From positions 107,897 through 171,896 of the forward strand of contig JBHLKM010000008.1 of NCBI GenBank assembly GCA_048886685.1: DNA of 64,000 nucleotides, read 5' to 3'. Made by a program: the position numbers and the translations under genes. This document shows positions 1 to 55,707 of this stretch, one piece after another; position 1 is the stretch's first letter, and each line of letters starts with the position of its first letter. Origin of the DNA: Candidatus Hodarchaeota archaeon (GTDB taxonomy: Archaea; Asgardarchaeota; Lokiarchaeia; Sigyniarchaeales; SOKP01). The notes under the pieces are model-generated. The model did not search any database. It worked only from the letters and a program-made list of their open reading frames with translations, and had not been told where the DNA came from.

Positions 1-714
1 AAAAATTTGAAACCAAATCCCGCAGCCTTTCAAAATTTATCTAGAATTAGGAAAACTATGTTAGAGAAATATGATATTGTAGTTTCTCAGGGAATAACTG
101 GTCCATTTGAGAACTGTGTGTTTGGGATAGGACATGCAAATTTCGCTCGTTTTGCGAGGAAAGATCCAAGTTTCCTTCAACAACATATGGATTTCCAATG
201 GGAAACGATTGAAGAACCCTCTTTGAAGTTGTTAATGAAGCAAAAACCTGATGTGGTAATGTGTGGAGATGACTATGGTTTTAATGCAGGATTACAAATG
301 AATGTTAAAAACTGGCGTAAATTTATTAAACCAAAATTAGCAGAATATGTTAAATATGCTCATGATGGTGCTGCTAAGTTTGTTATACATAGTTGTGGTA
401 ATATAGCTGAGATATTCCCTGATTTTGTTGAAATTGGAATTGATGGGGTAGAATCTTTAAAACCAAAAAATAACGATTTAAAAATGTATAGAGAAAAATA
501 TCCTGAAATTACATTGATTGGTACTGTTGATGATTCAGAAATGTTAAAATATGAATCACCTGGATTTATTAGAAATTCAATTCGAGATGATATTCAAACT
601 TTAGGAAAGAAAGGTGGCTATATACCGGGTCCAACAAATTTCTTATTGGATCAACCCCCTGAAAACATAGTTGCTCTATTTAAAGCGATACAGGATTACG
701 GAAAAATATATTAA
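1..714 (+). CDS. Uroporphyrinogen decarboxylase / MtaA-CmuA methyltransferase family protein (5' truncated by window edge)
   Basis: GDDYG, HSCGN and GGYIPGPTN..PPEN motifs typical of URO-D/MtaA TIM barrels; frame is open from the window start. Confidence 0.8.
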   Translation, partial: KNLKPNPAAFQNLSRIRKTMLEKYDIVVSQGITGPFENCVFGIGHANFARFARKDPSFLQQHMDFQWETIEEPSLKLLMKQKPDVVMCGDDYGFNAGLQMNVKNWRKFIKPKLAEYVKYAHDGAAKFVIHSCGNIAEIFPDFVEIGIDGVESLKPKNNDLKMYREKYPEITLIGTVDDSEMLKYESPGFIRNSIRDDIQTLGKKGGYIPGPTNFLLDQPPENIVALFKAIQDYGKIY

Positions 715-1837: not shown

Positions 1838-2004
1838 ATTTTATTTTTTCTTTTTTAGCTTTTTTTAAAGAACTACCTTGAAGTGAATACTTTAAAATTA
1901 ATAACTGAAGGATTCTAGAATAACTTTAATAAAACTATATATTTACAAAAAACAAAATAAATTCTAAAAAATCTAAAATTATCAATATTCTATTGGTAGA
2001 TAAT

Positions 2005-4314: not shown

Positions 4315-4316
4315 AG

Positions 4317-37270: not shown

Positions 37271-37296
37271 TTTTTATAACTCTTTTAGTTGTTATT

Positions 37297-37668
37297 TTAT
37301 TCATAAATTAGAGATGAATCTTTTTTACTCCTCATAAACGTGGAAAAATCTTTTATGGTTAATGCTTTTCGAATGTTTTCTGAATTCAAATTTAACTTAT
37401 TATTAGGTTCACAATTCCAGTCGTAGGATGCTCTTTCGTGAATTGCAAAATTATTGGGTTCTGGAGTTAAATCTTTAATTAGTTCACAAGTTTTACTTGT
37501 TTTAAACGCAATTGTATCAATACCTAAAAAAATTGAACAATTCCATTTATTATTGTCTCGACCTCCAAAATCTGTTAATCCACTAGATATAGAATAATCT
37601 TCACACTCCTGACAGATTTTACTATCATAACGGTACTTTTTTCCACAAACAGGACATTTTATTTCCAT
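37297..37668 (-). CDS. Zn-ribbon protein ending LIYE (paralog A), first gene of the glnA operon
   Basis: CPVCGKKYRYDSKICQECE..KWNC; 26-nt gap to glnA. Confidence 0.75.
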   Translation of the reverse strand: MEIKCPVCGKKYRYDSKICQECEDYSISSGLTDFGGRDNNKWNCSIFLGIDTIAFKTSKTCELIKDLTPEPNNFAIHERASYDWNCEPNNKLNLNSENIRKALTIKDFSTFMRSKKDSSLIYE

Positions 37669-37764
37669 TTTTTCATATTCTCTCTCATTTAATTTTTGAT
37701 TTAATTAATTTTTCAAAAAGAAATATACGTATATTGCCAAATTAAATCAATTTTTATTTTTATA

Positions 37765-37780
37765 TGGGATTTAAACCCCA
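37765..37780 (-). promoter_or_regulatory. GGG-N8-CCCA box upstream of the glnA operon
   Basis: TGGGGTTTAAATCCCA on the minus strand, 30 nt downstream of TATA-like TTTATATATA (37811-37820). Confidence 0.7.
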
Positions 37781-38017
37781 TTTTTTATCCTTTAACAATA
37801 AATGTGATCGTATATATAAAAATCTTTTGATCAATTATCTCAAATATTCATTTCTTGATAAAAATGTTAACAATATATTTAATAATCATTGAATAAAGTG
37901 ACCGATTGATTATTTAGAAATTTTTTGTCGTTATAGAGAATGATCATTTGAATATTTTTTATTGCTTTATTTAATCAAATGCATACTTTTATAATTATTT
38001 CATAACTATCTATTAAT

Positions 38018-38521
38018 ATGGTTGTTAATTCTAAGATAGTTAACTTATCTGATTTGGATAAGAAGATCCTAACTAAACTAGACGAAGATGGAAGATTATC
38101 ATTTCGTCATCTTGCTAAAGACTTAGAAGTAGGTTCACCTGTAACCATTAAAAATCATGTTGAGAATTTAGAAGAAAAGGGTGTTATTAAAAATTATGGA
38201 GTACAGATTGATTATGAAAAACTAGGGTATGATATTATCGCTCTTATTGAATTAACGGTTTCAAAAGGTAAAATGCTTGAAGTTGAAAATAAATTAGCCC
38301 AGAACCCAAACATTTTTGCTGTGTATGATATTACAGGAACATATGATGCTCTTATTCTTGCGAGATTTAAAACTAGGGCGGAGCTAAGCGAAATGATAAA
38401 AGAAGAAATACATACTTCTCCCTATGTTGAACGAACTAATACTCATATAGTTTTAAATATTATTAAAGAGGAATTTTCTTTTAAAAATTTGATAGAAAAA
38501 GAAGGAATAGAACTTCAATAG
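38018..38521 (+). CDS. Lrp/AsnC family transcriptional regulator
   Basis: LSDLDKKIL..DGRLS HTH, LEEKGVIK, LGYDI, ITGTYD. Confidence 0.93.
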   Translation: MVVNSKIVNLSDLDKKILTKLDEDGRLSFRHLAKDLEVGSPVTIKNHVENLEEKGVIKNYGVQIDYEKLGYDIIALIELTVSKGKMLEVENKLAQNPNIFAVYDITGTYDALILARFKTRAELSEMIKEEIHTSPYVERTNTHIVLNIIKEEFSFKNLIEKEGIELQ

Positions 38522-38540
38522 CAATCTAAAGCGAGGATAC

Positions 38541-38696
38541 TGAAAACGTTCAACAAAAATCATTAATTATTAATACTAGGATTGAATCCAAAGATAAATG
38601 TTCACTGAAATAAATCTTTATGTTTAAAATGTTCACAAAATCGAATATTCTGTAGACTATTTACTATTTTTAATATGAAAAAATATAAAATGTTCA
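38541..38696 (+). promoter_or_regulatory. Array of AAAYGTTCA repeats, candidate Lrp binding sites
   Basis: GTTCA cores at 38548, 38600, 38631, 38692. Confidence 0.45.
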
Positions 38697-38880
38697 ATAA
38701 CCTTACACAAAACTTAAATAGAAGAAGATTTTCACTGAATAATTTTCATAAGAAACGTATAATATTAATAGATCTTTCATTTATATTTAACTATTCTTGT
38801 CGAAAGGTTTAGAAAAATTATGAAAAGACATAATTTCTTTCAATAAATTATAAATAGAAGTTCTCCTTTAGTAATAAATA

Positions 38881-38896
38881 AGGGAACTTGTTCCCA
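38881..38896 (+). promoter_or_regulatory. GGG-N8-CCCA box upstream of the wHTH/Zn-ribbon/hdrBC/glt operon
   Basis: AGGGAACTTGTTCCCA, about 25 nt after TATA-like TTATAAATA (38848-38856). Confidence 0.7.
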
Positions 38897-38965
38897 CAAA
38901 TAAAAAAATAAGACATAAAAGAGGTAAAAAAAAATAAAAAAATTTTTTGAAAGGAGGTTTTAAAA

Positions 38966-39181
38966 ATAACAGTTCAAGAGTATTTTCGAACATGGGAAGA
39001 AATTTGCTTGGAAAAACTAAAAGAAATAGGAAGATGCTCAGCAGCCGAATGGGCTAGGGCAATGGGATATGGAGATAATCGTAATGGTGTGACAACAGTA
39101 ATAAAACGAATAAAAAAAACTATGCCTGAAAGGTTAACGGTTTATTATAACACCAGGCCACGATTATATGAAGCTGTATAA
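38966..39181 (+). CDS. Small winged-HTH protein, 71 aa, ATA start; absent from the ORF track
   Basis: (M)TVQEYFRTWEEICLEKLKEIGRCSAAEWARAMGYGDNRNGVTTVIKRIKKTMPERLTVYYNTRPRLYEAV*; GGAGGT SD 7 nt upstream; in-frame TGA at 38948. Confidence 0.7.
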   Translation: MTVQEYFRTWEEICLEKLKEIGRCSAAEWARAMGYGDNRNGVTTVIKRIKKTMPERLTVYYNTRPRLYEAV

Positions 39182-39211
39182 ACAGAATATTAAAGTAGAG
39201 TGTGAATTAAG

Positions 39212-39724
39212 ATGCCATTAAAATGCCAAATTTGTGGAAAAGAATATTTATATGATGGAAAGATATGCCATAGCTGCGAAGAGAGTGCCATTACAAGTGG
39301 TTTGACATCTCGAGAGGGATATGAACATAAGTGGAGATGTGATAATTTTATTGAACCGAATGGTTTAGTATTTGGAAGCAATTTAAATAAGAGAAGAGAG
39401 TTTACATTAAAATTAATTGAATGTCCTGAATGTGGAGAAAAGTATTCCTATGGCAGAAAAATCTGTCATGTCTGTGAAGGTAATTTATTGCCGTTTGGAA
39501 CGTTATTCGATTCAGATCGCAAGGCACGTAGGTGGAATTGTGAAACAGTATTAGCTTGTATAGAGATATTGTCATCTAATTTAGATACTACTGAGACCAT
39601 TGTAAAAGATGTACCCCATTTAGAAAAACTCGAGAAAACTGATTATAAATGGAATCAAGTTTCGACTATAAAATATAATAATGAACAAATAGATGGGAAG
39701 AACAAGCTTCTGATCTATGAATAA
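39212..39724 (+). CDS. Double Zn-ribbon protein ending LIYE (paralog B)
   Basis: Two CxxCGxxYxYxxKICxxCE..WxC repeats. Confidence 0.75.
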   Translation: MPLKCQICGKEYLYDGKICHSCEESAITSGLTSREGYEHKWRCDNFIEPNGLVFGSNLNKRREFTLKLIECPECGEKYSYGRKICHVCEGNLLPFGTLFDSDRKARRWNCETVLACIEILSSNLDTTETIVKDVPHLEKLEKTDYKWNQVSTIKYNNEQIDGKNKLLIYE

Positions 39725-39920
39725 ATATCATTTTTTAAATTCAAGATTATTAAAAAAAAGTAAAAATAATGAATATAACTCAGGTTAAAATTATGAGCAT
39801 TGTAGTAGTAAAGAAGGTAGCTTATACATCTAATTAAAATTAAGTTATTTCTTTATGGTTTTACTTAATATTTTCATTTTATTTTAAAGTAACTTAATGT
39901 AATTAAAGAGGTTAAAAAAA

Positions 39921-41261
39921 ATTCAACAAGAGATAATGTTATTTCCAGGATGCGTGATAGTAAATAGATTTCCCTTTATTGAAGTCTCAATAAGGAAAGT
40001 ATTTGATCATCTGGGAATATCTTTTACTGAAAATCCCAAATTTTCTTGTTGTCCAGATCCAAATGGCATTAAAAATTCTAATAAGTTATTATATTCTATT
40101 ACCGCAGCTCGCAATATTGCTCTTGCTGAGTTAGAAAATAAAGCAATATTAACACCCTGTAACGGATGCTTTAGCACATTAAAAAAAGTCAAAAGTGAAA
40201 TCGATACAGATCACCATTTCAAAAGGAAAATCAATAGTTATTTAGATAAGATTGATATCAAGGTTGAGGGAAAGACTGAAGTATTCCATATGGTTGATTT
40301 CATTTTCAAATTTAAGAGAGACACTATCAGGGATAATTTAATATATCCACTGACGGGATTAAGAGTTGCTGTGCATTATGGATGTCATTTTCTTAGACCA
40401 AGCAATAAAGTTCAGATAGATGATCCCTTGGAACCAGCAATCTTTGATGACTTAATTAAGGATTTAGGTGCTGAAAGTATAGATTATAATCTTAAAATGG
40501 ATTGTTGTGGGGGAATTCTCGAGAGAGCTGGAAATTCAAGTTTATCATTAGAAATTATTAAAGCAAAATTAGAAAGCATGAAAGAAAAAGATGTGGATTG
40601 CATTGTTGTTTGCTGTCCTCAATGTTATATGCAATTTGATCATTTACAACAGGAAATGAAAAAATTTGACTTTAATTATGACATTCCTGTGCTATATTAT
40701 TCAGAATTATTATCTCTCGCATTAGGGCTAGATCTCCGAGATATTATTAAAAAGCATCATAGAACCCAAGTTGATTCACTTTTTGAAAAGATCGATCTCA
40801 TCCAAGAGAAAAATAAGGAGATAAGAAAATTCTTCGATCTTACCTTTTTACTTAAATGCTATTCATGTGGGGCATGCGATGACGATTGTATTATCTCAAA
40901 GATGACCGAATTTAGTCCGAAGGCACTCATAGGCAATATTATCAAAGGAAAAATTGATCAGGTAATCTCAGATCCTTCTATTTGGATGTGTCTCGACTGT
41001 TATTTGTGTTATGAGCTTTGTCCGATGGGAATTGGCCTAATTGAAATTTTTACTATATTACGAAATTTAGCAAAAGAAAGAGGTTTTATCACTAAAGGAT
41101 TTGAAAAGGAATTTAACGCTTTTTACAAAAAAGGAATAGTAGGAATGCCTTCGAAGGCAGCACGATCTAGAGTTGGATTACCATCACATATACCGGATGT
41201 TGGAGATTTGAAAGATTTGTTTAATGTAGTAGAAAGAGAGAATACAAAACTAGAGGAATAA
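39921..41261 (+). CDS. Heterodisulfide reductase HdrB-HdrC fusion (probable ATT start; ORF track start ATG 39936)
   Basis: Two CCG domains (FPGC..SCCPDP..PCNGC; HYGCH..CCGG..CCPQC) followed by CYSCGACDDDC and CLDCYLCYELCP. Confidence 0.88.
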   Translation: MQQEIMLFPGCVIVNRFPFIEVSIRKVFDHLGISFTENPKFSCCPDPNGIKNSNKLLYSITAARNIALAELENKAILTPCNGCFSTLKKVKSEIDTDHHFKRKINSYLDKIDIKVEGKTEVFHMVDFIFKFKRDTIRDNLIYPLTGLRVAVHYGCHFLRPSNKVQIDDPLEPAIFDDLIKDLGAESIDYNLKMDCCGGILERAGNSSLSLEIIKAKLESMKEKDVDCIVVCCPQCYMQFDHLQQEMKKFDFNYDIPVLYYSELLSLALGLDLRDIIKKHHRTQVDSLFEKIDLIQEKNKEIRKFFDLTFLLKCYSCGACDDDCIISKMTEFSPKALIGNIIKGKIDQVISDPSIWMCLDCYLCYELCPMGIGLIEIFTILRNLAKERGFITKGFEKEFNAFYKKGIVGMPSKAARSRVGLPSHIPDVGDLKDLFNVVERENTKLEE

Positions 41262-41264
41262 TTT

Positions 41265-42455
41265 ATGAGATGGGAAAATTATACCTCATTACCAGAGCAG
41301 TATAGGAATCAGAGAGTATTCGATGGATGTGGGATTTCTGGATTTATAAATGTTGATGGGAGTAGGGTTAGAGGGGATAAAGTCATTGATATGCTATGTA
41401 TTTTAAAGGAGAGGGAAAATGGATTAGGAGCTGGGTTTGCGGCTTATGGTATTTATCCAAAATATAAAAATTATTATGCATTTCATTTTCTCTTTGATAA
41501 TATTTCTGCTAAAACAAAAGTTTTAGATTATTTAGATAATAAAGGTACAATTATCGCATCTGAACCAATTCCAACTAATACTCCTTTAAATGTTGATAAT
41601 CCACCGATTATTTGGAGAGCTTTCTTCGATCCTAATAAAAGTGGAAGTCTGGAACCAGACGAAAAAGTCGTACAGATTGTAATGGAAATAAATGCGAACA
41701 TAGAAAATGCTTTTGTTATGTCTTCCGGTAAAAACATGGGTGTGTTTAAAGGAAATGGGTGGTCACATGAAATTGCCAATTTTTACAAAATTTCAGATTA
41801 TGACGCTTTTATGTGGTTAGCGCATTCTAGGTTTCCTACCAATACTCCTGGATGGTGGGGAGGTGCTCACCCCTTTAATTTATTAAATTGTTCAGTTGTT
41901 CATAATGGAGAAATAACATCCTATGGAACAAATAGAAGGTACTTAGACTCGTTTGGATATAAATGCACTCTCTTCACCGACACAGAAGTCATTGCATATT
42001 TATTTGATTTATTATGTCGTAAGCATCAAATACCCTTATCTATCGCCACAATTGCTCTAGCACCACCATTATTTGGTGAGATCGAAAAGTTAAGCAGGAG
42101 AGAGCAACTAGTGCTTAAAAGTATAAGAGCAACTTATCGGAGCGCGATGTTAAATGGACCATTTTCAATTGTGGTTGGTTTTTCAAATCCAATTCCTACA
42201 ATGATCGGATTATCTGATAGAAAAAAATTAAGACCCCTTGTAATTGGAATTTCAGATGATGAAAACACTATATATATGAGTAGTGAGGAAGCATCTTTCA
42301 AACGATTGACGTTATCTAATAGAAATTTCTCAATGAAAGAAATATGGCATCCCAAAAGTGGGTCAGCAACGATTGTCATGCTTGGTAAAGGATTGATAAC
42401 AAATGGCCTTGAAACACCAATAAAAAATTTAAAATTAACAATGATGGAGGCTTAA
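41265..42455 (+). CDS. Glutamate synthase amidotransferase subunit (archaeal GltB1, Ntn type)
   Basis: DGCG (Ntn Cys), ERENGLGAG, HSRFPTNT, AHPF, HNGEI, TDTEV. Confidence 0.9.
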   Translation: MRWENYTSLPEQYRNQRVFDGCGISGFINVDGSRVRGDKVIDMLCILKERENGLGAGFAAYGIYPKYKNYYAFHFLFDNISAKTKVLDYLDNKGTIIASEPIPTNTPLNVDNPPIIWRAFFDPNKSGSLEPDEKVVQIVMEINANIENAFVMSSGKNMGVFKGNGWSHEIANFYKISDYDAFMWLAHSRFPTNTPGWWGGAHPFNLLNCSVVHNGEITSYGTNRRYLDSFGYKCTLFTDTEVIAYLFDLLCRKHQIPLSIATIALAPPLFGEIEKLSRREQLVLKSIRATYRSAMLNGPFSIVVGFSNPIPTMIGLSDRKKLRPLVIGISDDENTIYMSSEEASFKRLTLSNRNFSMKEIWHPKSGSATIVMLGKGLITNGLETPIKNLKLTMMEA

Positions 42456-42458
42456 ATA

Positions 42459-43979
42459 ATGGCAATCGCGCATGAAATTATTAATTATTTTAAAGTTGAT
42501 ATAAATAGAGAAGATTGTAAAAAATGTAAACGATGCATTAATCACTGTTCATTTGGAGTTTTGTCTTTTAATGGGGAACAAATAATTGCTGAGGATCATA
42601 AATGTGTTGCCTGTCAACGGTGTGCAGTTATGTGTCCTGGAAATGCGATAAGAATTGTTCAAAATGAGTCATTTTTGCCACCTCATGGACATTATACAAG
42701 AAAAATTCGAAATATAATCTGGGCTCAATCTGGGAATGGAGGTGTTCTACTATCCGCAACTGGTAATGATAGACCAATCCGTTCAATATTCGATGATTTA
42801 CTTCTAGATGCGTGCCAAGTTACTAATCCCTCTATCGATCCCTTAAGAGAAACAATTGAAACTAAGATAATTTTTGGGAGAAAACCAAAGAAATTAACTT
42901 TCATCTCTCATCCGGATGATTTAGAAAAAATTTCTTTAAAAACCAACTTGATGCCGAATTTTGAGATTGATATGCCAATCATGGTAGGTCATATGTCTTT
43001 GGGTTCAATTAGTTATAATGCATGTCAGGCAATTTACCAAGCAGCAACTGAATTAAATATTGTAGCAGGATCAGGTGAAGGGGGTTTACATCCAGATTTC
43101 TATGAATATGCTCCGAATATAATTACAGAAGTTGCTTCTGGAAGATTTGGAGTGGATATTAATTATCTTAGCAATGCTGCGGCGTTAGAAATAAAGATCG
43201 GGCAAGGAGCTAAACCAGGGCATGGTGGTCACTTACCAGGTGAAAAAGTTAGCAGTTTAATCTCGCAAACCCGAATGATTCCAAAAGGAAGCGATGCGTT
43301 ATCACCTTATCCCCATCATGATATTTATTCAATAGAAGATTTAGCTCAATTGATAGCTGCCTTAAAAGAAGCAACAAGATATAAAGTTCCTGTAGGAGTA
43401 AAAATAGCGGCAGTTCATAATTCTGCTCCGATTGCAGTTGGAATTGTTAGAGGAAGTGCTGATTTTCTTACTTTAGACGGATTCCGTGGTGGAACTGGTG
43501 CTGCTCCAAGAATTATTCGGGATCATGCAGGAATCCCCATTGAATTAGCCATAGCTGCCGTTGATGAAAGATTAAGACAAGAAAATTTACGTGAAGAAGT
43601 AACTTTAATAGCTGGCGGTTCAATTCGATATTCTGCTGATTTAATTAAGGCTATTGCTCTAGGCGCTGATGTAGCAATGTGTTGTATGCCAGTTTTAATT
43701 TCAATGGGATGTAGAGTTTGTCAGCAATGCTTCAGGGGACTATGTCCCTGGGGAATTGCAACTCAACAAGAATATTTGGTAAAACGATTAGATGTTGATG
43801 TTGCGAAAAATAGAATAATTAATTTATTTCATTCTTGGAATGAAGAATTAAAGGAAGTTTTAGGAGCGATGGGAATTGATTCTATAGAATCGCTCCGCTC
43901 AAACCGAGACCGATTAAGATATATAGGTCCAAATCCGCGTATTGCGGACATTTTAGGAGTAAAACATGCAGGTGAATAA
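42459..43979 (+). CDS. Glutamate synthase FMN subunit with N-terminal 2x[4Fe-4S] (archaeal GltB2)
   Basis: VASGRFG, KIGQGAKPGHGGHLP, HHDIYSIEDL, GGTGAAP, CRVCQQC..CPWGIATQ. Confidence 0.92.
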   Translation: MAIAHEIINYFKVDINREDCKKCKRCINHCSFGVLSFNGEQIIAEDHKCVACQRCAVMCPGNAIRIVQNESFLPPHGHYTRKIRNIIWAQSGNGGVLLSATGNDRPIRSIFDDLLLDACQVTNPSIDPLRETIETKIIFGRKPKKLTFISHPDDLEKISLKTNLMPNFEIDMPIMVGHMSLGSISYNACQAIYQAATELNIVAGSGEGGLHPDFYEYAPNIITEVASGRFGVDINYLSNAAALEIKIGQGAKPGHGGHLPGEKVSSLISQTRMIPKGSDALSPYPHHDIYSIEDLAQLIAALKEATRYKVPVGVKIAAVHNSAPIAVGIVRGSADFLTLDGFRGGTGAAPRIIRDHAGIPIELAIAAVDERLRQENLREEVTLIAGGSIRYSADLIKAIALGADVAMCCMPVLISMGCRVCQQCFRGLCPWGIATQQEYLVKRLDVDVAKNRIINLFHSWNEELKEVLGAMGIDSIESLRSNRDRLRYIGPNPRIADILGVKHAGE

Positions 43980-44817
43980 AATTACTATAGTTAATGATAT
44001 TGAAACAAAAGATTTTGGAATTGGAATTGAAGAACCATTAGAGATAGATGCTGCTCCAAATGGAGATCCTCTCGATTATAGAGAATTAAATTCCATGATT
44101 CATAATGCTGTTAATAATAATTGTAAGAAAATTGTGTTAAACAATGTTTGTGGGCAAAGATTTATAGGTGCTGCTTTACAAGGAGATGTAGAAATAAGTA
44201 TTAATGGGGTTCCTGGTAATGATTTAGGGATTTTTATGGATGGTCCAAGAATTAGTGTTTTTGGGAATTGTGAGGACCAATCTGGTAATACCATGAATCA
44301 AGGAACAATGATAATTGATGGGGATGGAGGAGATGTTATAGGCTTATCTTCAAGAGGCGGGAAGATTTATATCAAAGGTGATGTTGGATATAGAGTTGGT
44401 ATTCACATGAAAGAATATGAAGACCATTTTCCAATATTAATAGTCGGTGGCACAGCTAAAGACTTTTTAGGTGAATATATGGCTGGTGGTAAAATTATTG
44501 TACTTGGTTTAAAAATTTCCTCAAATAGTAGTATTTCTGAGAGTCCACAGTCAATTTGTGGTACGGAATTAGGAACAGGGATTCATAGGGGTGCTATTTA
44601 TCTTCGAACAGAAGAAAATGTAGAGGATAGGTTAGGTGTTGGAGCAAAAGTTTTCAATCTTTCAAAAGATGAACAAGAAGAAATTGATACTTACGTAGAA
44701 GATTTCTGTAAAACATTTAATGTTCCCCTAAGTGCTGTTGATAATAAACCTTTTAAAGTTATTAAACCAATTTCAAAAAGACCTTTTGGTGGAAATTATT
44801 GTAGCCAATTAATCTAA
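43966..44817 (+). CDS. Glutamate synthase GXGXG subunit (archaeal GltB3)
   Basis: GQRFIG, GVPGNDLG, GYRVGIHMK, DFLGEYMAGG; overlaps gltB2 by 14 nt. Confidence 0.9.
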   Translation: MQVNKITIVNDIETKDFGIGIEEPLEIDAAPNGDPLDYRELNSMIHNAVNNNCKKIVLNNVCGQRFIGAALQGDVEISINGVPGNDLGIFMDGPRISVFGNCEDQSGNTMNQGTMIIDGDGGDVIGLSSRGGKIYIKGDVGYRVGIHMKEYEDHFPILIVGGTAKDFLGEYMAGGKIIVLGLKISSNSSISESPQSICGTELGTGIHRGAIYLRTEENVEDRLGVGAKVFNLSKDEQEEIDTYVEDFCKTFNVPLSAVDNKPFKVIKPISKRPFGGNYCSQLI

Positions 44818-45040
44818 TTTTTTCCCCTTTTTTTGAATTTGTTCATTTATAAACATTAAGCTTTAATATATGAATAACAACCCTTAAACATTGTTCAATT
44901 ATATTCATTTTTTCTAAAAAATATTGAAAAATTCTTATATTAATTTTTAAGATTATCGGATTTTTTAATTAAATATTAATAAATTGTTTAATTTCGATCC
45001 TAATATTTATTAATAATAAAACCTAATTTATTATAAAAAA

Positions 45041-45056
45041 TGGGAATACAAACCCA
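45041..45056 (+). promoter_or_regulatory. GGG-N8-CCCA box upstream of the second FMN subunit
   Basis: TGGGAATACAAACCCA, 25 nt after TATA-like TTTATTAATA (45006-45015). Confidence 0.65.
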
Positions 45057-45092
45057 CTATTTTTTTGAATACATTTGAAAAGTAGATTATTT

Positions 45093-46742
45093 ATGACAAA
45101 ATTTTCAATGGATACTCATCAATCAAGCATGATAGGGTCTAGAACCAGAGTTGAGGATTCTTGTGAATCTGGTTTGTGCCCAATTTGTGTAGCAGATTGC
45201 CCTGTTTTCTGCGAAGTTTCAAAATCTGCTTTGCGCGGTCGCGAAGTGTTATATCCACGTAGAGAATTTTTTGGTAATTCTACAGCTGGTTCACCAAAAG
45301 ATTTTGGGTTCTCTTATAGTGACTTTCAAATTCAATTTGAATGTCGAGGAGCTCAGGGAATTGAAGAAGATGAAGATAAAGTAATATTTCCTAATGTTAA
45401 TATTAAAACTAAGTGGGGAAATATTGAACAAAAAAATCCATTTGTAATTGCTGGTTTAGGAAGCACTTACGTTGCAAAACGTAACTGGGATGGTTTAGCA
45501 ATAGGAGCTGCATTATCAGGAGTAAGTACTACTGTAGGAGAGAATGTAGTTGGAATGGATCCTTATGCTAAATTCGCAAACCATGCCGTATATCCTAAAG
45601 TAGTTGATACACAGGATATGAAATATCGGGTTGAAAAATACAGAGAATTTTGGGATGGGAAGCATGGAGATATTATTGTACAAAAAAATGTAGAGGATAC
45701 AAGATTAGGTGTTTTTGATTATGTTATGTCTAATTTAGAAGTAAACTCACTTGAAATAAAATTTGGTCAAGGTGCAAAAGCAATTGGAGGCGAAGTCAGG
45801 TTAGAATCATTGGAGCGTGCCCAATTACTGCAGGAAAGAGGGTACCTTGTCTTTCCTGATCCTTCAGATCCAGTTATTATTGAACAGTGGAAAGAAGGAT
45901 TAATTCCAGACTTTGAAAGACATAGTCGGGTAGGACTATCTTCTACTGAGGATGTTTTAGAAGAAATTGATCAAGTACGCTCAAGCGGCGCAAAAAATAT
46001 TTTCATAAAAACTGGAGCATACAGACCAGCAGCAACAGCTTGGATAATAAGATTAGGTATTGAAGGAAAAGTAGATGGAATGACTTTTGATGGTGCTGGT
46101 GGAGGTACTGGTATGAGTCCAGTAAGTATGATGAATGAAGGATCAATTCCAACAGCCTATTTAGAAGCACTAGTAGTTGGATGTCTTGATATGATTAAAA
46201 AGAAAAATCCGAATGTATCTATACCCTCTATTGCAATAGCAGGTGGTATTGCTAATGAAACACAGATTTTTAAAGCACTTGCTATGGGTGCTCCTTATGT
46301 AAATTGCATTGCGATGGCAAGAGCCCCAATTACCGCAGCTATGAAAGCAAAATTCATTGGAGAGGTTATTAATAAAAAGGAAGCCACACCTGCAATGCTT
46401 CGCAATTTGGGTTTCTATAAGGACAAAGATCCTAAAAGTTTGACATTAAGTGAAGCTTTTGTTGAGTATGATAATTTGAATAGAATTTATAACGGAAATC
46501 GTATTCCTCCTTCGGCGATTGGAGTTTACACTTATTTTACTAGCAAATTAGGTATAGGACTCCAACAACTATTAGCTGGAGTTCGAAAATTTAAGGCGAA
46601 TTTAATATGTCGAAATGATATTGCTTATATTTCTCAAAGAGCTAAAGAAGTATGTAAAAAATGGAATCTTGGAATTAAATCTCAAGAATCACTCGATTAT
46701 GAGTTAGTAAAAAATGAGATTTATTCTGGGAATTATGATTAA
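45093..46742 (+). CDS. FMN-binding glutamate synthase family protein (stand-alone GltB2-like) with N-terminal Cys cluster
   Basis: CESGLCPICVADCPVFCE, KFGQGAKAIGGE, DGAGGGTGMSP, AGG, KALAMGA; ATG 45093 preferred over TTG 45075. Confidence 0.85.
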   Translation: MTKFSMDTHQSSMIGSRTRVEDSCESGLCPICVADCPVFCEVSKSALRGREVLYPRREFFGNSTAGSPKDFGFSYSDFQIQFECRGAQGIEEDEDKVIFPNVNIKTKWGNIEQKNPFVIAGLGSTYVAKRNWDGLAIGAALSGVSTTVGENVVGMDPYAKFANHAVYPKVVDTQDMKYRVEKYREFWDGKHGDIIVQKNVEDTRLGVFDYVMSNLEVNSLEIKFGQGAKAIGGEVRLESLERAQLLQERGYLVFPDPSDPVIIEQWKEGLIPDFERHSRVGLSSTEDVLEEIDQVRSSGAKNIFIKTGAYRPAATAWIIRLGIEGKVDGMTFDGAGGGTGMSPVSMMNEGSIPTAYLEALVVGCLDMIKKKNPNVSIPSIAIAGGIANETQIFKALAMGAPYVNCIAMARAPITAAMKAKFIGEVINKKEATPAMLRNLGFYKDKDPKSLTLSEAFVEYDNLNRIYNGNRIPPSAIGVYTYFTSKLGIGLQQLLAGVRKFKANLICRNDIAYISQRAKEVCKKWNLGIKSQESLDYELVKNEIYSGNYD

Positions 46743-50304: not shown

Positions 50305-50533
50305 TATTGAGAAACTCTTAACTTAGAATTGAAATATATCTTGAATTAATATTTTTTATGTTGAAATCGTTTCTTAATTATTTTTTAATAAGTTAAATAA
50401 TCAAATTAATTTTTCCAATTAGTCGTAGATTTTTTCTAACTTAAAATTATTTATTAAATAGATATTCAAAAAACCATTATAGCAAAAGAAATGATTGTAA
50501 ATTAGATTTTCTTAAGAAATAATTATTAAAATA

Positions 50534-50549
50534 GGGGAAAAAATTCCCA
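50534..50549 (+). promoter_or_regulatory. GGG-N8-CCCA box upstream of the nfn-like operon
   Basis: GGGGAAAAAATTCCCA. Confidence 0.65.
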
Positions 50550-50665
50550 TAAACAGAGTGATTTACGATATATTTTTTTTAGGTCGAATTATTCTTCAAT
50601 TAGGAGGAACAAAATTATTTTCGAATTGAATCTTCAAATAAATCTTGAATATAATAAGAATCGCA

Positions 50666-51550
50666 ATGCCTTTTAAAATTTTAAAAAAAATCCAACTTGG
50701 AAAAAGTGGTACATTATTTGAAATTGATATTTACGCCCCGCTAATAGCTAAGAAAGCATTTGCAGGTAACTTTATACTTCTTAGAATTAATGAAACAGGG
50801 GAGCGAATTCCCTTAACAATTGCTGATTATGATACTGATAACGGAACATTAACTATCGTTTTTCAAGTAATTGGAAAAAGTACAAAACTTCTTTCTACTC
50901 TGAATGTAGAAGATGAAATTTTAGATGTTGTTGGACCATTAGGTAATAGAATTCATACTGAAAAATATGAAAATTCTGTTGTTATTGTTGGGGGTGGTGT
51001 TGGTATAGCAGAATGTTATCCCCAAGCAAAGGAATTGAAAAACATAGGAAATAACATTATATCGATAATAGGAGCAAGGACGAAAGATTTAATATTTTGG
51101 AAAGATAAAATGGCTGCTGTAACTGATACATTAATTATATGCACTGATGATGGAAGTGAAGGAATAGAGGGATTTGTAACAGATCCACTTAAAAAGCTAC
51201 TCAAAACTGAGAAAATAAGTGTTGTGATAGCGATTGGACCATTAATCATGATGAAGAACGTTTCTCTTTTAACAAATGGATTGAATAATTTGCCTAAAGT
51301 AAGAACCTATGTATCTTTAAATACAATAATGATTGATGGTACTGGAATGTGTGGGGGATGTCGATTCTCAACTCATGATGGTAACATATATTTTGCATGT
51401 GTTGAAGGACCTGATGTAGATGGGCATATAGTTGATTTTGATAATCTTTTAAATCGTTCTAAAAGATTTATTAAACAAGAACAGGAATCTTTAGAAAATT
51501 TTGAACATGAATGTAAAGCTCTAGAAAAAACAGGGGGAAATGCATCTTAG
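50666..51550 (+). CDS. nfnA: NfnA/SudB-type FAD-[2Fe-2S] subunit (ferredoxin:NADP+ oxidoreductase small subunit)
   Basis: GERIPLTI, GPLG, GGGVG, TDDGS, DGTGMCGGC..CVEGP; ATG 50666 preferred over TTG 50645. Confidence 0.88.
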   Translation: MPFKILKKIQLGKSGTLFEIDIYAPLIAKKAFAGNFILLRINETGERIPLTIADYDTDNGTLTIVFQVIGKSTKLLSTLNVEDEILDVVGPLGNRIHTEKYENSVVIVGGGVGIAECYPQAKELKNIGNNIISIIGARTKDLIFWKDKMAAVTDTLIICTDDGSEGIEGFVTDPLKKLLKTEKISVVIAIGPLIMMKNVSLLTNGLNNLPKVRTYVSLNTIMIDGTGMCGGCRFSTHDGNIYFACVEGPDVDGHIVDFDNLLNRSKRFIKQEQESLENFEHECKALEKTGGNAS

Positions 51551-54275
51551 AATGGAGTTCCAAACACCATTAATAAAAGTTTTGCTTGAGAATAAGGCTA
51601 AGATTTTAGAGGCAAAAAGATATGGCACTGAATCTGAATTTCAAAACTTCCTTAATTTAATAATTAATGCAGAAAAACAACGACAAGCTGTTTTAAAAGG
51701 GATAAAAGAAATAGGCTCTATAAATATCCAAAAATTAAAGAATAATTTGGGCATAACAGAAGAAGCCCTGATTTATAATGTAGAGTATTTAAAAGAATTA
51801 GGTTCTTTGGAATTTATTGGGGAAAAATCAAGATTTTTTCAAAAAATAATTGAAAAAAATGGTTATACTGGCTTATTTCCAAATGTTTCAATAATAAGAG
51901 ACAGAAATCTATGTTGTGGTTGTGGTTTATGTGATTCTATCTGCCCTGTAAAAGCAATAAACTATACAGGTAATACTTTTGAGCTAAAGGAAGAAGTTTG
52001 TTTCAACTGTGGGTTGTGTTTTTCATGTTGTCCAAGATCTTTCTTCCCAAAAACATTGAAAAGAATTAAAAAAAATACTCATTTAAATTCCAAATTTTCA
52101 GAACCATTGAATTATTATTATGAAATACATTCTGCTTCCACTAATGATGATCGTATAAGAGCTGTAGCTCAGAATGGAGGAATTGTTACCAGTTTGCTTA
52201 AAGCAGCTTTTCAAGAGAATTTTATTGATGCTGCTATAGCAGTAAGTGTGTCTGATGAGCCGCATAAATCTCTACCTATAATAATTGATAGTGAGGAAGG
52301 ATTATTAAGAACTGCAAGCACAAAATATACAAATTCGCCCTCTTTGAAGTTATTACGCATATCTCAAGATTATAAAAGGATTGCTGTAGTTGGTACACCT
52401 TGTATGATGAAGGCACTTAAAAAAGTCTCCTTTTATCCTCTTAATAAACCTTTTTATGAAAATATCGTCATAAAAATCGGATTATTTTGTATGGACTCAT
52501 TTAATTATGATCAAATTAAATCTGTATTGAAAAAAGAGTTTCATATAACTCCAAAAGAAGTAAAAAAAATGGATATTGACAAGGGACGATTTTATGTTTT
52601 TCATCAAGACGGTTCTATTTTTACTATGCCTGTAAAAGATCTTGTTAAATTTAGTAGACTTGAATGTTTCTTCTGTGATGATCTCACCTCAGAACAAGCC
52701 GATATTTCTGTAGGCTCTATAGGATCTGAACCTGGCTGGTCTACAGTGCTTGTAAGGACTAAAAAAGGAGTTCAATTATTTCAGAAGGCTTTAAGTCTTG
52801 GATTAATTGAAAAAAAAGAAATATTAGAGGATAGTAAAGATTTTATTACTCTAAGCAGAATTGCTAAATCTAAACAAAAGGTTTATAAGGACATATATCG
52901 ACCAAAAATGATAGAACAGGACCCAAATATAAGAATTACTAATTTTCAAGAAGTAGCTAAAGGTTTAACATTAGATATGGTAAAATTAGAATCTACAAGG
53001 TGTTTACAATGTGGAAAACCGCTTTGTATTGAAGGTTGTCCAGTAAATATAGATATTCCTCAATTCATTAGATTATTGAGGGAAGAAAAATTAATTGATG
53101 CACTAAGAGTGATGAAAGATTATAATTTATTACCGGCCATATGTGGAAGAGTGTGTCCTCAAGAAATACAATGTGAAAAAACATGTTTACTAAATAATTT
53201 AGAAGAACCAATCAGTATTGGTTATTTAGAAAGATTTATTGCTGATTGGGAAAGAATGAATGAACTCAAAGAATGTCCAGATTGTCAATCCCCAAACAAT
53301 ATTAAAGTTGCGATTATAGGTTCAGGACCAGCAGGATTAACATGTGCTGCAGAACTTGCTAAATTGGGTTATGATGTCACTATCTTTGAAGCATTACATG
53401 ATGGAGGAGGCGTATTAACTTATGGTATTCCTGAATTTAGATTACCAAAAGAGATCGTTAAAGACGAAATTGATACCTTAAAATTACTTGATGTAAAGAT
53501 TCAATATAATACGATTATAGGCAAAACGTTAACAATACAGGATTTGAAGGATCAAGGATACAAGGCTATTTTCATAGGTGTAGGCGCAGGACTCCCGATA
53601 TTCCCTAAAATAAATGGCTTAAACCTAAATGGTGTTTTAACAGCAAATGAATTTCTTACAAGAGCGAACCTAATGAAAGCTTATAAATTTCCTGAATATG
53701 ACACTCCAATTAAAGTGGGAGATATTGTTACTGTTATTGGAGGAGGAAATACGGCTCTTGATGCTTCTAGAGTTGCCAAACGATTAGGGGCCAAAAAAGT
53801 AATGGTTATTTATAGGAGATCCGAAGCAGAGATACCCGCAAGAAAAGAAGAATTTCATCATGCTATTGAAGAAGGAATCGAATTCCAGTTTTTAACTAAT
53901 CCTTTAGAGTTTATAGGTGATGAAAATGACAATGTAAAACAAATTCAGGTTATTAAAATGAAATTAGGTGAACTTGATGAATCTGGCCGACGTAGACCAA
54001 TCCCAATCGAAAATTCTGAATTTTCCATATATGCTGACACTGTTATATTAGCAATTGGTACAATAGCTAATCCAATATTAATTAAATCGCTTCCAGAATT
54101 AAAACTTGATAAATGGGGTTATATCGAAACTGATGAAAATAGTAGAACTAATTTAGAAGGAATTTATGCAGGGGGAGATATAGTTTCAGGCTCTGCAACC
54201 GTTATATCTGCCATGGGTGGTGGAAAAAAAGCTGCTCACGCCATAGATGAGTATTTAAGAAATCTATTATTATAA
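51540..54275 (+). CDS. wHTH-like + 2x[4Fe-4S] + FrhB (F420-binding) + NfnB/SudA/GltD fusion
   Basis: CCGCGLCDSICP, QNGGIVTSLL, VVGTPC, GLFC, ADISVGSIG..GWSTVLVRT; then RCLQC, CGRVCPQE, GSGPAG, GGGNTA, YRRS. Confidence 0.88.
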   Translation: MHLRMEFQTPLIKVLLENKAKILEAKRYGTESEFQNFLNLIINAEKQRQAVLKGIKEIGSINIQKLKNNLGITEEALIYNVEYLKELGSLEFIGEKSRFFQKIIEKNGYTGLFPNVSIIRDRNLCCGCGLCDSICPVKAINYTGNTFELKEEVCFNCGLCFSCCPRSFFPKTLKRIKKNTHLNSKFSEPLNYYYEIHSASTNDDRIRAVAQNGGIVTSLLKAAFQENFIDAAIAVSVSDEPHKSLPIIIDSEEGLLRTASTKYTNSPSLKLLRISQDYKRIAVVGTPCMMKALKKVSFYPLNKPFYENIVIKIGLFCMDSFNYDQIKSVLKKEFHITPKEVKKMDIDKGRFYVFHQDGSIFTMPVKDLVKFSRLECFFCDDLTSEQADISVGSIGSEPGWSTVLVRTKKGVQLFQKALSLGLIEKKEILEDSKDFITLSRIAKSKQKVYKDIYRPKMIEQDPNIRITNFQEVAKGLTLDMVKLESTRCLQCGKPLCIEGCPVNIDIPQFIRLLREEKLIDALRVMKDYNLLPAICGRVCPQEIQCEKTCLLNNLEEPISIGYLERFIADWERMNELKECPDCQSPNNIKVAIIGSGPAGLTCAAELAKLGYDVTIFEALHDGGGVLTYGIPEFRLPKEIVKDEIDTLKLLDVKIQYNTIIGKTLTIQDLKDQGYKAIFIGVGAGLPIFPKINGLNLNGVLTANEFLTRANLMKAYKFPEYDTPIKVGDIVTVIGGGNTALDASRVAKRLGAKKVMVIYRRSEAEIPARKEEFHHAIEEGIEFQFLTNPLEFIGDENDNVKQIQVIKMKLGELDESGRRRPIPIENSEFSIYADTVILAIGTIANPILIKSLPELKLDKWGYIETDENSRTNLEGIYAGGDIVSGSATVISAMGGGKKAAHAIDEYLRNLLL

Positions 54276-54456: not shown

Positions 54457-55707
54457 ATGAATGAGAATTTAGATCCTTTTTCAATTGCTCAACAACAACT
54501 TTATGATGCGTGTAAAATAAGTGGGTATGATTCAGAAATCTATAATGCGTTAAGCGAGCCAGAACGATTCGTTCAAATTAAAATCACAATGAAAATGGAT
54601 GATGGGTCGCTAAAGACTTTCCAAGGTTTCAGAAGCCAATATAATTCTGCTAGAGGACCAATGAAAGGTGGTATTCGGTGGCATCCTGATGAATCAGCTT
54701 CTCTTGTAAAAGCATTATCTGCATGGATGACATGGAAGACTGCTTGTGTTGATATCCCCTTAGGTGGTGCAAAAGGAGGAATTATATGTAATCCTAAAGA
54801 GATGAGTAATCGGGAAATTGAAACTTTAGCGAGAAGTTATATAAGGCAGCTCGCAGACTTTATTGGACCTAATATCGATGTACCTGCCCCAGATGTTTAT
54901 ACAAATCCACAAATTATGGCATACATGCAAGATGAATATGAAAAAATAGTACGCCATCATGCACCCTCAGTTATTACTGGCAAGCCTTTACCTTTGGGTG
55001 GTAGTGCTGGAAGGTCAATAGCAACAGCTAAAGGGGGAGTTTATACAGTTAGAGAGGCTGCAAAAGACATAGGATTGAACTTAAATGGTGCAACTGTAGC
55101 AATTCAAGGATATGGTAATGCTGGATCATGGGCAGCTAAAATTCTACATGATGATTTCAATTGTAAAATCATAGCTGTATCAGATTCTAGAGGTGGCATT
55201 TATAATGAAGATGGTTTAAACCCTTACGCTGCAGGTGAGCATAAAGAAAAAACAAGATCAGTAGTAGGAACTAAGGGTTCAAAAGAAATTTCAAACGAAG
55301 AATTATTGGAGTTAGAATGTGATGTTTTAATACCTGCGGCATTAGAAAATGTTATAACTAGAAATAACGCAGATAATATAAATACCAAAATTATTGCGGA
55401 ATTGGCAAATGGCCCAACAACACCTGATGCAGATACTATACTTTTTGAAAAAGGAGTTCTTGTTATACCTGATTTTTTGTGTAATGCTGGTGGGGTTACT
55501 GTATCATATTTCGAAATGGTGCAAGGTTATTACCGATATTTCTGGACAGAAACAGAAGTTTTTGAAGCATTGGATAGAGTTATGACGAGAGCTTATCGTT
55601 CTACAGTTGATCAATCAGAGAGATTCAATACCCATAATAGAATGGGGGCATATATTATCTCTTTAGAGCGTGTGATATCTGCAATGAGACTTAGAGGGTG
55701 GATTTGA
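54457..55707 (+). CDS. gdhA: Glutamate dehydrogenase
   Basis: KGGIRWHP, MTWK, GGAKGG, DVPAPD, TGKP, QGYGNAG, ELANGP, NAGGV. Confidence 0.95.
   Translation: MNENLDPFSIAQQQLYDACKISGYDSEIYNALSEPERFVQIKITMKMDDGSLKTFQGFRSQYNSARGPMKGGIRWHPDESASLVKALSAWMTWKTACVDIPLGGAKGGIICNPKEMSNREIETLARSYIRQLADFIGPNIDVPAPDVYTNPQIMAYMQDEYEKIVRHHAPSVITGKPLPLGGSAGRSIATAKGGVYTVREAAKDIGLNLNGATVAIQGYGNAGSWAAKILHDDFNCKIIAVSDSRGGIYNEDGLNPYAAGEHKEKTRSVVGTKGSKEISNEELLELECDVLIPAALENVITRNNADNINTKIIAELANGPTTPDADTILFEKGVLVIPDFLCNAGGVTVSYFEMVQGYYRYFWTETEVFEALDRVMTRAYRSTVDQSERFNTHNRMGAYIISLERVISAMRLRGWI

Follow-up and report, generated by a model that had tools for sequence, protein, structure and literature searches.

An NfnSL-type transhydrogenase with a fused ferredoxin–FrhB cassette in a Lokiarchaeia family and its possible coupling to F420

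Architecture of the nfnS–fusion locus

The window, a 64,000-nt stretch, comes from an uncultured Asgard archaeon and carries nfnS followed by a long fusion gene, both on the same strand as gdhA (Table 1). A Pfam and open reading frame survey places guaA, nfnS, gdhA and a CitMHS transporter in the neighborhood of the fusion. The earlier note had described a canonical NfnA/SudB followed by a 911-aa protein with wHTH-like, 2x[4Fe-4S], FrhB and NfnB regions; Pfam and the NfnA/SudB model NF004862 agree, and the second protein likely starts at Met5 (51552), a single base past the nfnS stop codon and the start point of the majority of its homologues. Pfam locates a 4Fe-4S dicluster (res. ~121–167), FrhB_N (res. 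197–272, E 3e-17) and FrhB_C (res. 279–428, E 3e-43) ahead of the Fer4_20 (res. 465–574) and Pyr_redox_2 (res. 589–893) domains of the NfnL part, and the HTH region returned no Pfam match.

Table 1. Features of the nfnS–fusion locus in window coordinates.
Feature	Position	Strand	Details
Palindromic box	50531..50552 (GGG-N8-CCCA at 50535-50549)		Core GGGA-N6-TCCC / GGG-N8-CCCA; ~115 nt upstream of nfnS
nfnS (NfnA/SudB; NfnI-like)	50666..51550	+	FAD, NAD(H) site, Asp-ligated [2Fe-2S]; frame open from 50645, ATG 50666
Fusion gene, 911 aa (907 aa from the probable Met5 start)	51540..54275	+	Helix+HTH, 2x[4Fe-4S], FrhB, NfnL; stop-free
Long helix + HTH-like domain	51552..51869	+	Homologues: the tail at the C-terminus of long MvhD; the corresponding region in FrhB paralogues of Hdr islands
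Built-in 2x[4Fe-4S] ferredoxin domain	51891..52037	+	C125, C128, C131, C135, C154, C157, C160, C164
FrhB-family F420 oxidoreductase module (FAD + [4Fe-4S])	52107..52895	+	C288, C317, C376, C379
Complete NfnL (NfnB/SudA)	52905..54275	+	Two [4Fe-4S], Glu564 ligand, bifurcating-FAD Arg634, NADP-binding R759/R760, R768
Codon 553 (Asn in window copy)	53196..53198	+	Four residues past cluster ligand C549
gdhA, Thermococcales-type glutamate dehydrogenase	54457..55707 (from ATG)	+	Neighbor; conserved with the fusion only partly

The fusion is not an assembly artefact. This explanation is ruled out by ~90 full-length fusion clusters (57–78% identity), by a second assembly (99.3% identity) with the same open frame, and by independent bridging contigs across the joints, among them two Logan contigs that cover the FrhB–NfnL joint with zero differences and whose runs may be the window's own source. 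An AlphaFold model of the full-length protein has a pLDDT of 76 and a pTM of 0.59.

The palindromic box upstream of nfnS is a candidate operator of a glutamate/2-oxoglutarate regulon; its GGG-N8-CCCA core, reported earlier, is present but lies outside the interval the earlier note described. Similar boxes precede the Lrp/glnA region, the CCG-gltB operon, a second gltB, the ATP-citrate-lyase/IDH operon and iorB. The box belongs to the locus and not to the fusion, and it also precedes unfused genes. Congeners keep it ahead of nfnS whether their nfnL is fused or plain; the plain gene encodes a 462-aa NfnL and sits in the same guaA-nfnSL-gdhA arrangement. In congeners the box escaped a strict TGGG-N8-CCCA scan and was recovered with a weight matrix trained on this genome's own sites. 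Genome-wide, intergenic GGG-N8-CCC occurrences (51) show no excess over an N7 control (57), and many are tRNA arms. The 14-bp spacing is similar to that of the NrpR operator; this reading was rejected, as a domain search in the window's genome found no NrpR.

The position directly upstream of gdhA holds in the window, with a gap of ~180 nt, but not in general: gdhA comes next in only 10 of 30 fused loci and also follows plain nfnL loci. The link to gdhA is a property of the locus, and the proposal that F420H2 supplies NADPH for GDH finds no backing in it; a search for evidence that electrons go to GOGAT likewise gave nothing in support.

Conservation of the Nfn core and the N-terminal cassette

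NfnS passes NF004862 (354 bits, cut-off 220), retains the [2Fe-2S] motif DGTGMCGGCR...C and matches 5jca_S (E 5e-84) and 4ylf_A (8e-72), with NfnII/Xfn 5vj7_B reaching only 1.5e-40. In 30 of 30 fused loci, the gene immediately before the fusion ends in an NfnS domain. The NfnL domain matches 4ylf_B (E 1e-165) and 5jca_L (E 5e-155), and a Foldseek comparison gives 54–56% identity to the core of solved NfnL. Its ligands C488, C491, C496, C500, C539, C545, C549 and E564 are invariant in 91 of 91 sequences. E564 aligns to P. furiosus E126, the Glu cluster ligand, and R634 corresponds to P. furiosus R201, the Arg at N5 of the bifurcating FAD; both residues are invariant along with R759/R760 and R768. 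The YRRS motif of the NADP site, seen earlier, falls at residues 758–761 with both Arg invariant. An Arg at the FAD N5 is no proof of bifurcation by itself (cf. StnC); tight NADPH/NAD+/acceptor bifurcation by the fusion enzyme is predicted by homology. The database label GltD (glutamate synthase small chain) was discarded: TIGR01316 is passed (580 > 472) and the GltD models TIGR01317/01318 are failed, identity to A. brasilense GltD is 32% versus the 54–56% to NfnL, and nfnS always adjoins. BfuBC (NuoF/NuoE-like) genes of the Bfu family are absent from the fusion neighborhood in the window.

The 450-aa N-terminal cassette is homologous by sequence comparison to Hdr/MvhD-associated FrhB paralogues. 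Within the genome, its first 110 residues match only the MvhD tail and FrhB paralogues (E 5e-14 to 2e-4). The helix+HTH region is the least conserved part, with a mean identity of 48%; residues 42–88 fold HTH-like (rmsd ~1 Å over 47 residues) at a weak, non-diagnostic VIA-align Z of 4.6–4.8, in a region whose single-sequence model is weak (pLDDT 62) and whose Atlas scores are <0.9. The eight cysteines of the ferredoxin domain and the four of FrhB are present in 91 of 91 sequences, in domains that are only 47–68% identical. The fused ferredoxin domain has a mean net charge of −3; the free 65-aa ferredoxin of this genome has −13. Codon GC3 gives no sign of a foreign origin for the cassette.

Among solved structures, the cassette best matches F420 reductases or oxidases (8riu_B, 6qgr_B, 3zfs_C, 8rja_E, 7npa_A), and against the frhB and FpoF models of NCBIfam its scores stay below cut-off. 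The FrhB [4Fe-4S] cysteines C104, C134, C192 and C195 correspond to C288, C317, C376 and C379 of the fusion. FrhB binds FAD through loops with QDGG, GTKYT and CMENF motifs and lines its F420 channel with IGKGK and STGSVGS (PMC3591093, PMC3930138). The fusion-family consensus of the FAD loops is QDGG, GTKY and CMESF, and the window copy reads QNGG, STKYT and CMDSF, placing it off-consensus at three FAD/F420-loop positions (N212, S260 and D319, the last found in 1 of 91). The channel motifs are kept as IDKGRF (K348 in 82/91, G349 in 89/91) and SVGSIGS (G392 and S393 in 91/91). The module keeps its Cys ligands and both sets of motifs apart from the three loop positions, and F420 binding by the module is predicted from these family motifs.

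Distribution of the cassette and the ferredoxin face of NfnL

The fusion is restricted to one Lokiarchaeia family, in which 34 of 68 genomes carry it; the Nfn genes examined in the sister family are all plain. About half of the family relies on a plain NfnL, which can occupy the same locus and coexist with intact cof genes; the module is therefore dispensable. Quick IQ-TREE and FastTree trees, which disagree in places (the L027 group), perhaps through recombination, indicate that the cassette has been lost again at least two times independently; one further copy carries an internal FrhB_C deletion.

The window's genome has cofG, cofH, cofD and cofE over cut-off and cofC at only 76 bits (cut-off 105); on gene content, the host is predicted to make F420. 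Across the family cofG occurs in 62 of 70 and cofD in 67 of 70 genomes, compared with 0 of 14 and 2 of 14 in the sister family. Loss of F420 synthesis does not account for loss of the cassette, because four genomes keep both cofG and cofD and a fifth keeps cofD. A search for Fno (npdG) gave zero matches over cut-off in 90 genomes of the order, the genus having a sub-cut-off relative (84 bits vs 150).

Ferredoxin is predicted to dock at the NfnL cluster beside position 553 (PMC6405883). At the equivalent position, NfnL of T. maritima and of P. furiosus has Lys, as do almost all unfused relatives. The residue is Lys or Arg in 102 of 109 plain NfnL but in only 7 of 127 fused proteins, counts in which related sequences are not independent; the exceptions are these seven and L102. 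All nine plain proteins nested within the fused clade have Lys or Arg. Because the basic residue is nearly absent from fused proteins, the cassette may occupy the ferredoxin face of NfnL, where residue 553 would touch ferredoxin.

A possible F420-coupled electron path and its alternatives

We propose, with a probability of about 0.55, that the protein is a variant NfnSL in which the attached ferredoxin–FrhB cassette replaces the ferredoxin partner, catalyzing 2 NADPH + NAD+ + F420 <=> 2 NADP+ + NADH + F420H2; F420 probably takes the place of free ferredoxin. NADPH would reduce the NfnL FAD, whose surrounding residues are conserved, with the chemistry assigned by homology. By the same homology, one electron would pass through the NfnS [2Fe-2S] cluster and FAD to NAD+. 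The other would travel over the proximal and distal NfnL clusters into the fused 2x[4Fe-4S] domain, across a presumed contact, and from there to the FrhB cluster and FAD, as in Fsr, FrhBG and the ethanotroph F420 reductases. Once the enzyme has turned over twice, the FrhB FAD would hand a hydride to F420.

The enzyme would couple three two-electron pools close to equilibrium. At usual cell ratios, NADPH oxidation with F420 reduction is favored by a computed 15–23 kJ/mol, so the enzyme would run in this direction, with NADPH from, for example, GDH, IDH or MtdA; it would reverse only when F420 is highly reduced, and it could substitute for Fno. At −340 to −380 mV, confurcation with NADH holds a computed NADPH/NADP+ ratio of only ~0.5–2, versus ~230 for ferredoxin at −500 mV, and with P. 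furiosus potentials F420H2 electrons climb 13–17 kJ per electron to the −513 mV cluster. The suggestion that F420H2 replaces or supplements ferredoxin as low-potential donor survives in part. An F420-wired low-potential branch is supported by the FrhB ligands, cofG/H/D/E, the confinement to an F420-making family and the co-varying residue of the ferredoxin face; the energetics speak against a true low-potential donor, and such a role toward GDH is weak because the reaction lies near equilibrium and favors F420 reduction.

An unlikely alternative is that the cassette acts as a tethered FpoF-like F420:ferredoxin oxidoreductase in a four-substrate hub, where free ferredoxin still exchanges electrons, either on NfnL or on the outer of the fused clusters, F420 supplements it, and ferredoxin-driven NADPH supply to GDH persists. 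The acidic 65-aa 2x[4Fe-4S] ferredoxin of the genome fits such a hub, as do the full-length likeness of the cassette to FpoF/FqoF (155 bits, under cut-off), the interchange of plain and fused NfnL at one locus behind the same box, and the boxes before citrate-lyase/IDH, GOGAT and glnA-region genes; a high NADPH/NADP+ ratio, too, is attainable only with ferredoxin. However, 120 of 127 fused proteins have lost the basic residue at 553, which argues against the usual docking of a free acidic ferredoxin on NfnL, and an open F420 outlet would be expected to drain low-potential electrons.

We consider it improbable that the MvhD-derived helix+HTH tail ties Nfn to an HdrA/MvhD/HdrD-type complex that receives the electrons of F420H2 oxidized at FrhB, bypassing the NfnL branch. 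The exclusive match of the N-terminus to the MvhD tail and FrhB paralogues would suit such docking, the gene immediately before nfnS is of the Fe-S-GltD-CCG (HdrD-like) type in ~8 of 30 fused loci, and HdrA-NfnB fusions occur in ANME-1 (PMC9012536). Yet no hdr gene adjoins the fusion in the window or in close congeners, the HdrD-like neighbor remains at three loci after cassette loss, and the tail is the part that varies most. Equally improbable is another substrate at the FrhB site, or a cassette that is an electronically unconnected passenger being lost. The same fold serves non-F420 substrates in BciB, with ferredoxin and chlorophyllide (PMC13297055), and the repeated deletions and the three off-consensus loop residues of the window copy point the same way; against this stand the 12 of 12 invariant Cys, the retained channel motifs, the range limited to an F420-making family and the change at NfnL 553 alongside the cassette.

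Compared with NfnAB of T. maritima (4YLF) and NfnI of P. furiosus (5JCA), the fusion enzyme has the same two-gene layout, core identity, Glu-ligated proximal cluster, Arg at the flavin N5, NADP arginines and Asp-ligated [2Fe-2S], but differs in its cassette and in having lost the basic residue by the distal cluster. It matches none of the four Nfn patterns A–D (PMC6405883). In Ca. Ethanoperedens thermophilum, a 2x[4Fe-4S] + FrhB unit switches CODH and Fwd from their normal coupling with ferredoxin to F420 (PMC11493965). These subunits (8RIU chain B, E 2.5e-51; 8RJA chain E, 5e-46) resemble the cassette but are separate subunits on non-bifurcating C1 enzymes, whereas in the window the unit shares one chain with a flavoprotein of the bifurcating type. 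Fsr (7NP8/7NPA), FrhB (3ZFS/4OMF, 6QGR) and FpoF/FqoF share the ferredoxin + FAD/[4Fe-4S] F420 module, N-terminally fused in Fsr as well, yet their partners are a sulfite reductase, a hydrogenase and a membrane complex instead of Nfn. F420-Bfu, itself a prediction, and Nfn-Bfu/Stn (PMC9304861, PMC10482914) likewise rely on bifurcation to connect F420 or NADP(H) with NAD(H); they use a BfuBC core, place F420 or NADP at mid-potential and keep ferredoxin, while on the NfnSL core F420 would sit at the low-potential end. Fno also connects the F420 and NADP pools, but as a small Rossmann protein with direct hydride transfer and without NAD(H) or Fe-S clusters.

In the freely accessible literature, no description of an Nfn–FrhB/F420 fusion was found. 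More tentatively than the F420-coupled reaction itself, we suggest that this may be the first flavin-based bifurcating enzyme without a diffusible one-electron carrier, with strict NADPH/NAD+/F420 coupling, F420 at the low-potential end, and repeated exchange of this arrangement among Lokiarchaeia accompanied by a matching change of the ferredoxin dock. If so, F420 would join the best-studied bifurcating enzyme as a terminal partner, a soluble two-gene test case would be at hand for coupling with a low-potential acceptor at ~−350 mV instead of −500 mV, and it would be seen how F420-making Asgard archaea that have no clear Fno connect F420 to NADP. The significance is bounded, as this is an accessory module of one family, made of two known parts. 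Natural fused/unfused pairs at the same locus, 70–75% identical, permit direct comparison. NCBI gene calls often omit the FrhB half of the fusion, an annotation fault that conceals it in public records.

Architecture and reality of the fused gene

In the window, nfnS is followed by an uninterrupted frame of 911 codons that lies directly upstream of gdhA and joins a wHTH-like region, a 2x[4Fe-4S] ferredoxin domain, FrhB N and C parts, and NfnL, an arrangement described in the earlier note on which reading frames, Pfam domains, and structure matches agree; guaA lies upstream of nfnS in divergent orientation. Residues 456–907 align with the NfnL proteins 4ylf_B of T. maritima (E 1e-165) and 5jca_L of P. 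furiosus (E 5e-155), and NfnS is nearer in sequence to NfnI-S than to NfnII/Xfn. Met5 (51552) is the probable start, since most homologues begin there, and the protein would then have 907 residues. The free-ferredoxin partner apart, all sequence features tested identify the enzyme as NfnSL; identities as GltD and as a Bfu enzyme are rejected. The architecture is among none of Nfn patterns A–D; the predicted F420-Bfu is a conceptual relative with a different core, and BciB shows that a FrhB fold can work without F420. No published account of an Nfn-FrhB fusion was found in the literature open to search.

An assembly artefact is ruled out. A search for the architecture, as proposed earlier, recovers ~90 full-length clusters at 57–78% identity, the named ones labeled Promethearchaeota or Lokiarchaeota; two Logan contigs, possibly from the source samples, bridge the FrhB-NfnL joint with 0 differences, and a second assembly, 99.3% identical, has the same open frame. 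Gene calls from an internal methionine conceal the fusion in annotated databases: Met457 is a frequent NCBI start, the remainder being named 'glutamate synthase' and ~1.3 kb left unannotated. Seven such records have an open frame extending 439–470 codons further upstream, with FrhB motifs in it; in an eighth the contig end truncates it.

Features of the window, the fusion, and other loci
Feature	Location	Strand	Remark
nfnS	50666-51550	+	ATG start
Fusion gene	51540-54275	+	overlaps nfnS end
gdhA	start 54457	+	downstream of fusion gene
4Fe-4S dicluster	residues ~121-167		Pfam
FrhB_N	residues 197-272		Pfam
FrhB_C	residues 279-428		Pfam
Fer4_20	residues 465-574		Pfam
Pyr_redox_2	residues 589-893		Pfam
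Palindromic box	50531-50552		core GGGA-N6-TCCC, before nfnS
Nitrogen cluster	35921-46742		glnA, Lrp/AsnC regulator, CCG/Fe-S gene, split GOGAT (GATase, FMN, GXGXG), second Glu_synthase-like gene; three boxes
Molybdopterin oxidoreductase (773 aa), then GltD-like Fe-S flavoprotein (668 aa)	1993-6323		window
Ferredoxin-FrhB-PyrK/NfnS-like fusion, 605 aa	L005 6696-8513	-	host genome
FrhB with GltD-like module between N and C parts	L006 6216-8687	+	
Divergent FrhB genes	L002 6947-8818; 9018-10454	-; +	one after Cys-poor MvhD fold + HTH, one with TrmB-type HTH
Long MvhD	L090 2684-3481		helix+HTH tail as in fusion's N-terminus
Fusions with internal-Met NCBI start	L099 2646-4001; L101 2643-4001; L103; L104; L106		HTH-ferredoxin-FrhB half unannotated, frame open

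Probable origin, placement, and loss of the cassette

Among solved structures, the N-terminal ~450-residue cassette is most similar to FrhB, Fsr, and the F420 reductases of ethanotroph CODH/Fwd. Its eight ferredoxin and four FrhB cysteines show no variation across 91 sequences, in which the FAD loops and F420-channel motifs (PMC3591093, PMC3930138) are also retained; the window copy is off consensus at N212, S260, and D319. Residues 1–110, for which a long helix and an HTH-like domain are predicted, share homology with the long-MvhD tail and with the equivalent region in three host FrhB paralogues; a structural role of the HTH is therefore likelier than a regulatory one. These three paralogues match the entire cassette at 36–40% identity, so the cassette probably came in one piece from an Hdr/Mvh-associated FrhB. 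Judged by its ~12 FrhB paralogues, including FrhB-PyrK and GltD-interrupted forms, module shuffling is common in this genome.

Several plain NfnL proteins, which have no cassette, are nested in a well-supported fused clade of our NfnL trees, quick ones in which recombination is possible. Their N-termini retain either the fusion's first residues or FrhB's last helix, suggesting that the cassette was deleted independently at least twice. T. maritima and P. furiosus NfnL both carry Lys at position 553, four residues past the cluster ligand C549. The position is K/R in 102/109 plain versus 7/127 fused proteins, counts with many near-copies and some exceptions, only some 'plain' database proteins having been checked against DNA; it is K/R in all nine nested plain proteins. 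By the NfnL fold, C549 belongs to the distal cluster. This cluster is the predicted docking site of ferredoxin (PMC6405883). The host's free ferredoxin, at a charge of -13, is strongly acidic, and the fused domain, at -3, is mildly acidic. Since residue 553 co-varies with fusion on this docking side and free ferredoxin is acidic, we read this as the cassette sitting on NfnL's ferredoxin face, the basic patch being required again after cassette loss.

An 862-residue fusion with part of FrhB_C deleted (L068 3051-5639) is possibly a decaying copy. In another Asgard family, NfnL carries a ~140-residue Cys-rich N-terminal extension (L087 7431-9302); such proteins mostly also have no basic residue at 553 (P0114, P0115, P0118-P0120).

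Proposed electron path and direction

NfnL residues required for bifurcation (PMC9503767, PMC10482914) are invariant in the 91 sequences (E564, R634, R759, R760, R768). On the simplest path, electrons would pass from L-FAD through the proximal and distal clusters to the fused ferredoxin, the FrhB cluster, FAD, and F420, the link from NfnL to the cassette being the step we infer. This path follows the ethanotroph CODH/Fwd enzymes, in which a ferredoxin-FrhB unit replaces ferredoxin (PMC11493965). The explanation we favor, at a probability of roughly 0.55, is an NfnSL with the cassette in ferredoxin's place, coupling NADPH, NAD+, and F420.

The earlier note cast F420H2 as the low-potential donor, giving NADPH for GDH or electrons for GOGAT. 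Reported potentials are -370 mV for NADP, -280 mV for NAD, and -340 to -380 mV for F420 (PMC6405883, PMC9304861, PMC11493965, PMC10229431). From these, 2 NADPH + NAD+ + F420 is computed to be downhill by 15–23 kJ/mol, and the reverse reaction sustains NADPH/NADP+ of only ~0.5–2, versus ~230 with ferredoxin at -500 mV, so F420H2 does not qualify as the kind of low-potential donor that an Nfn uses. At GDH's potential such a ratio may suffice for glutamate synthesis, and strong reduction of the F420 pool could therefore allow F420H2 to supply GDH. The window's GDH has its closest matches among Thermococcales enzymes, which work catabolically in peptide fermenters, so disposal of NADPH would fit too. 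What stands of the proposed F420-linked Nfn is the F420 link, favored by sequence features and an F420-making family; gdhA lies downstream in only 10/30 fused loci. The enzyme would be better seen as a balancer of the NADP, NAD, and F420 pools.

Distribution and regulatory context

Among 300 genomes of the host's phylum, the full-length fusion occurs in 34/68 of its family, and five of these have two copies; the matches listed include none from another family. In 30/30 loci the gene directly before it ends in an NfnS domain; other neighbors are an Fe-S-GltD-CCG, MtdA-type, or IDH-like gene. Congeners have a plain 462-residue NfnL at the corresponding guaA-nfnSL-gdhA locus. As for the F420 biosynthesis genes to which the earlier note had pointed, cofG, cofH, cofD, and cofE of the host score above cut-off and cofC weakly. 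cofG is found in 62/70 and cofD in 67/70 family genomes, against 0/14 and 2/14 in the sister family (single-contig genomes included), whose Nfn genes, among those examined, are plain; because related genomes are not independent, the profile counts as one or two events rather than as statistical evidence. Fno had 0 hits above cut-off in 90 genomes. Within the genus, 20/22 genomes encode an F420_oxidored-family Rossmann protein below that cut-off (L094 3863-4450), which is rare in the rest of the order. In one locus two tandem fused nfnL genes follow a single nfnS (L074 7361-12871). Elsewhere in Lokiarchaeia, NfnS is fused behind a NuoG/FdhA-like Fe-S and molybdopterin-family domain (L063 640-4014, L066 386-3688, L075 6777-8756; also L064, L065, L079, L082), after a NuoF-like gene; L075 also has the FrhB-NfnL fusion.

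The box noted before nfnS is present and conserved in the genus, nfnL fused or plain alike; most other loci with the fusion yielded no box. Similar boxes precede the Lrp/glnA region, the CCG-gltB operon, a second gltB, the ATP-citrate-lyase/IDH operon, and iorB; this pattern ties the locus to glutamate/2-oxoglutarate metabolism without bearing on F420. NrpR was not found in the host genome. In two sister-family genomes a TGGG-N8-CCCA box precedes plain nfnS (L067 6476, L083 6465), so the regulatory link possibly predates the fusion. The boxed ATP-citrate-lyase operon (L092 4018-8553) ends in an isocitrate-dehydrogenase-like gene of a type that adjoins nfnSL in L040, L064, and L077.
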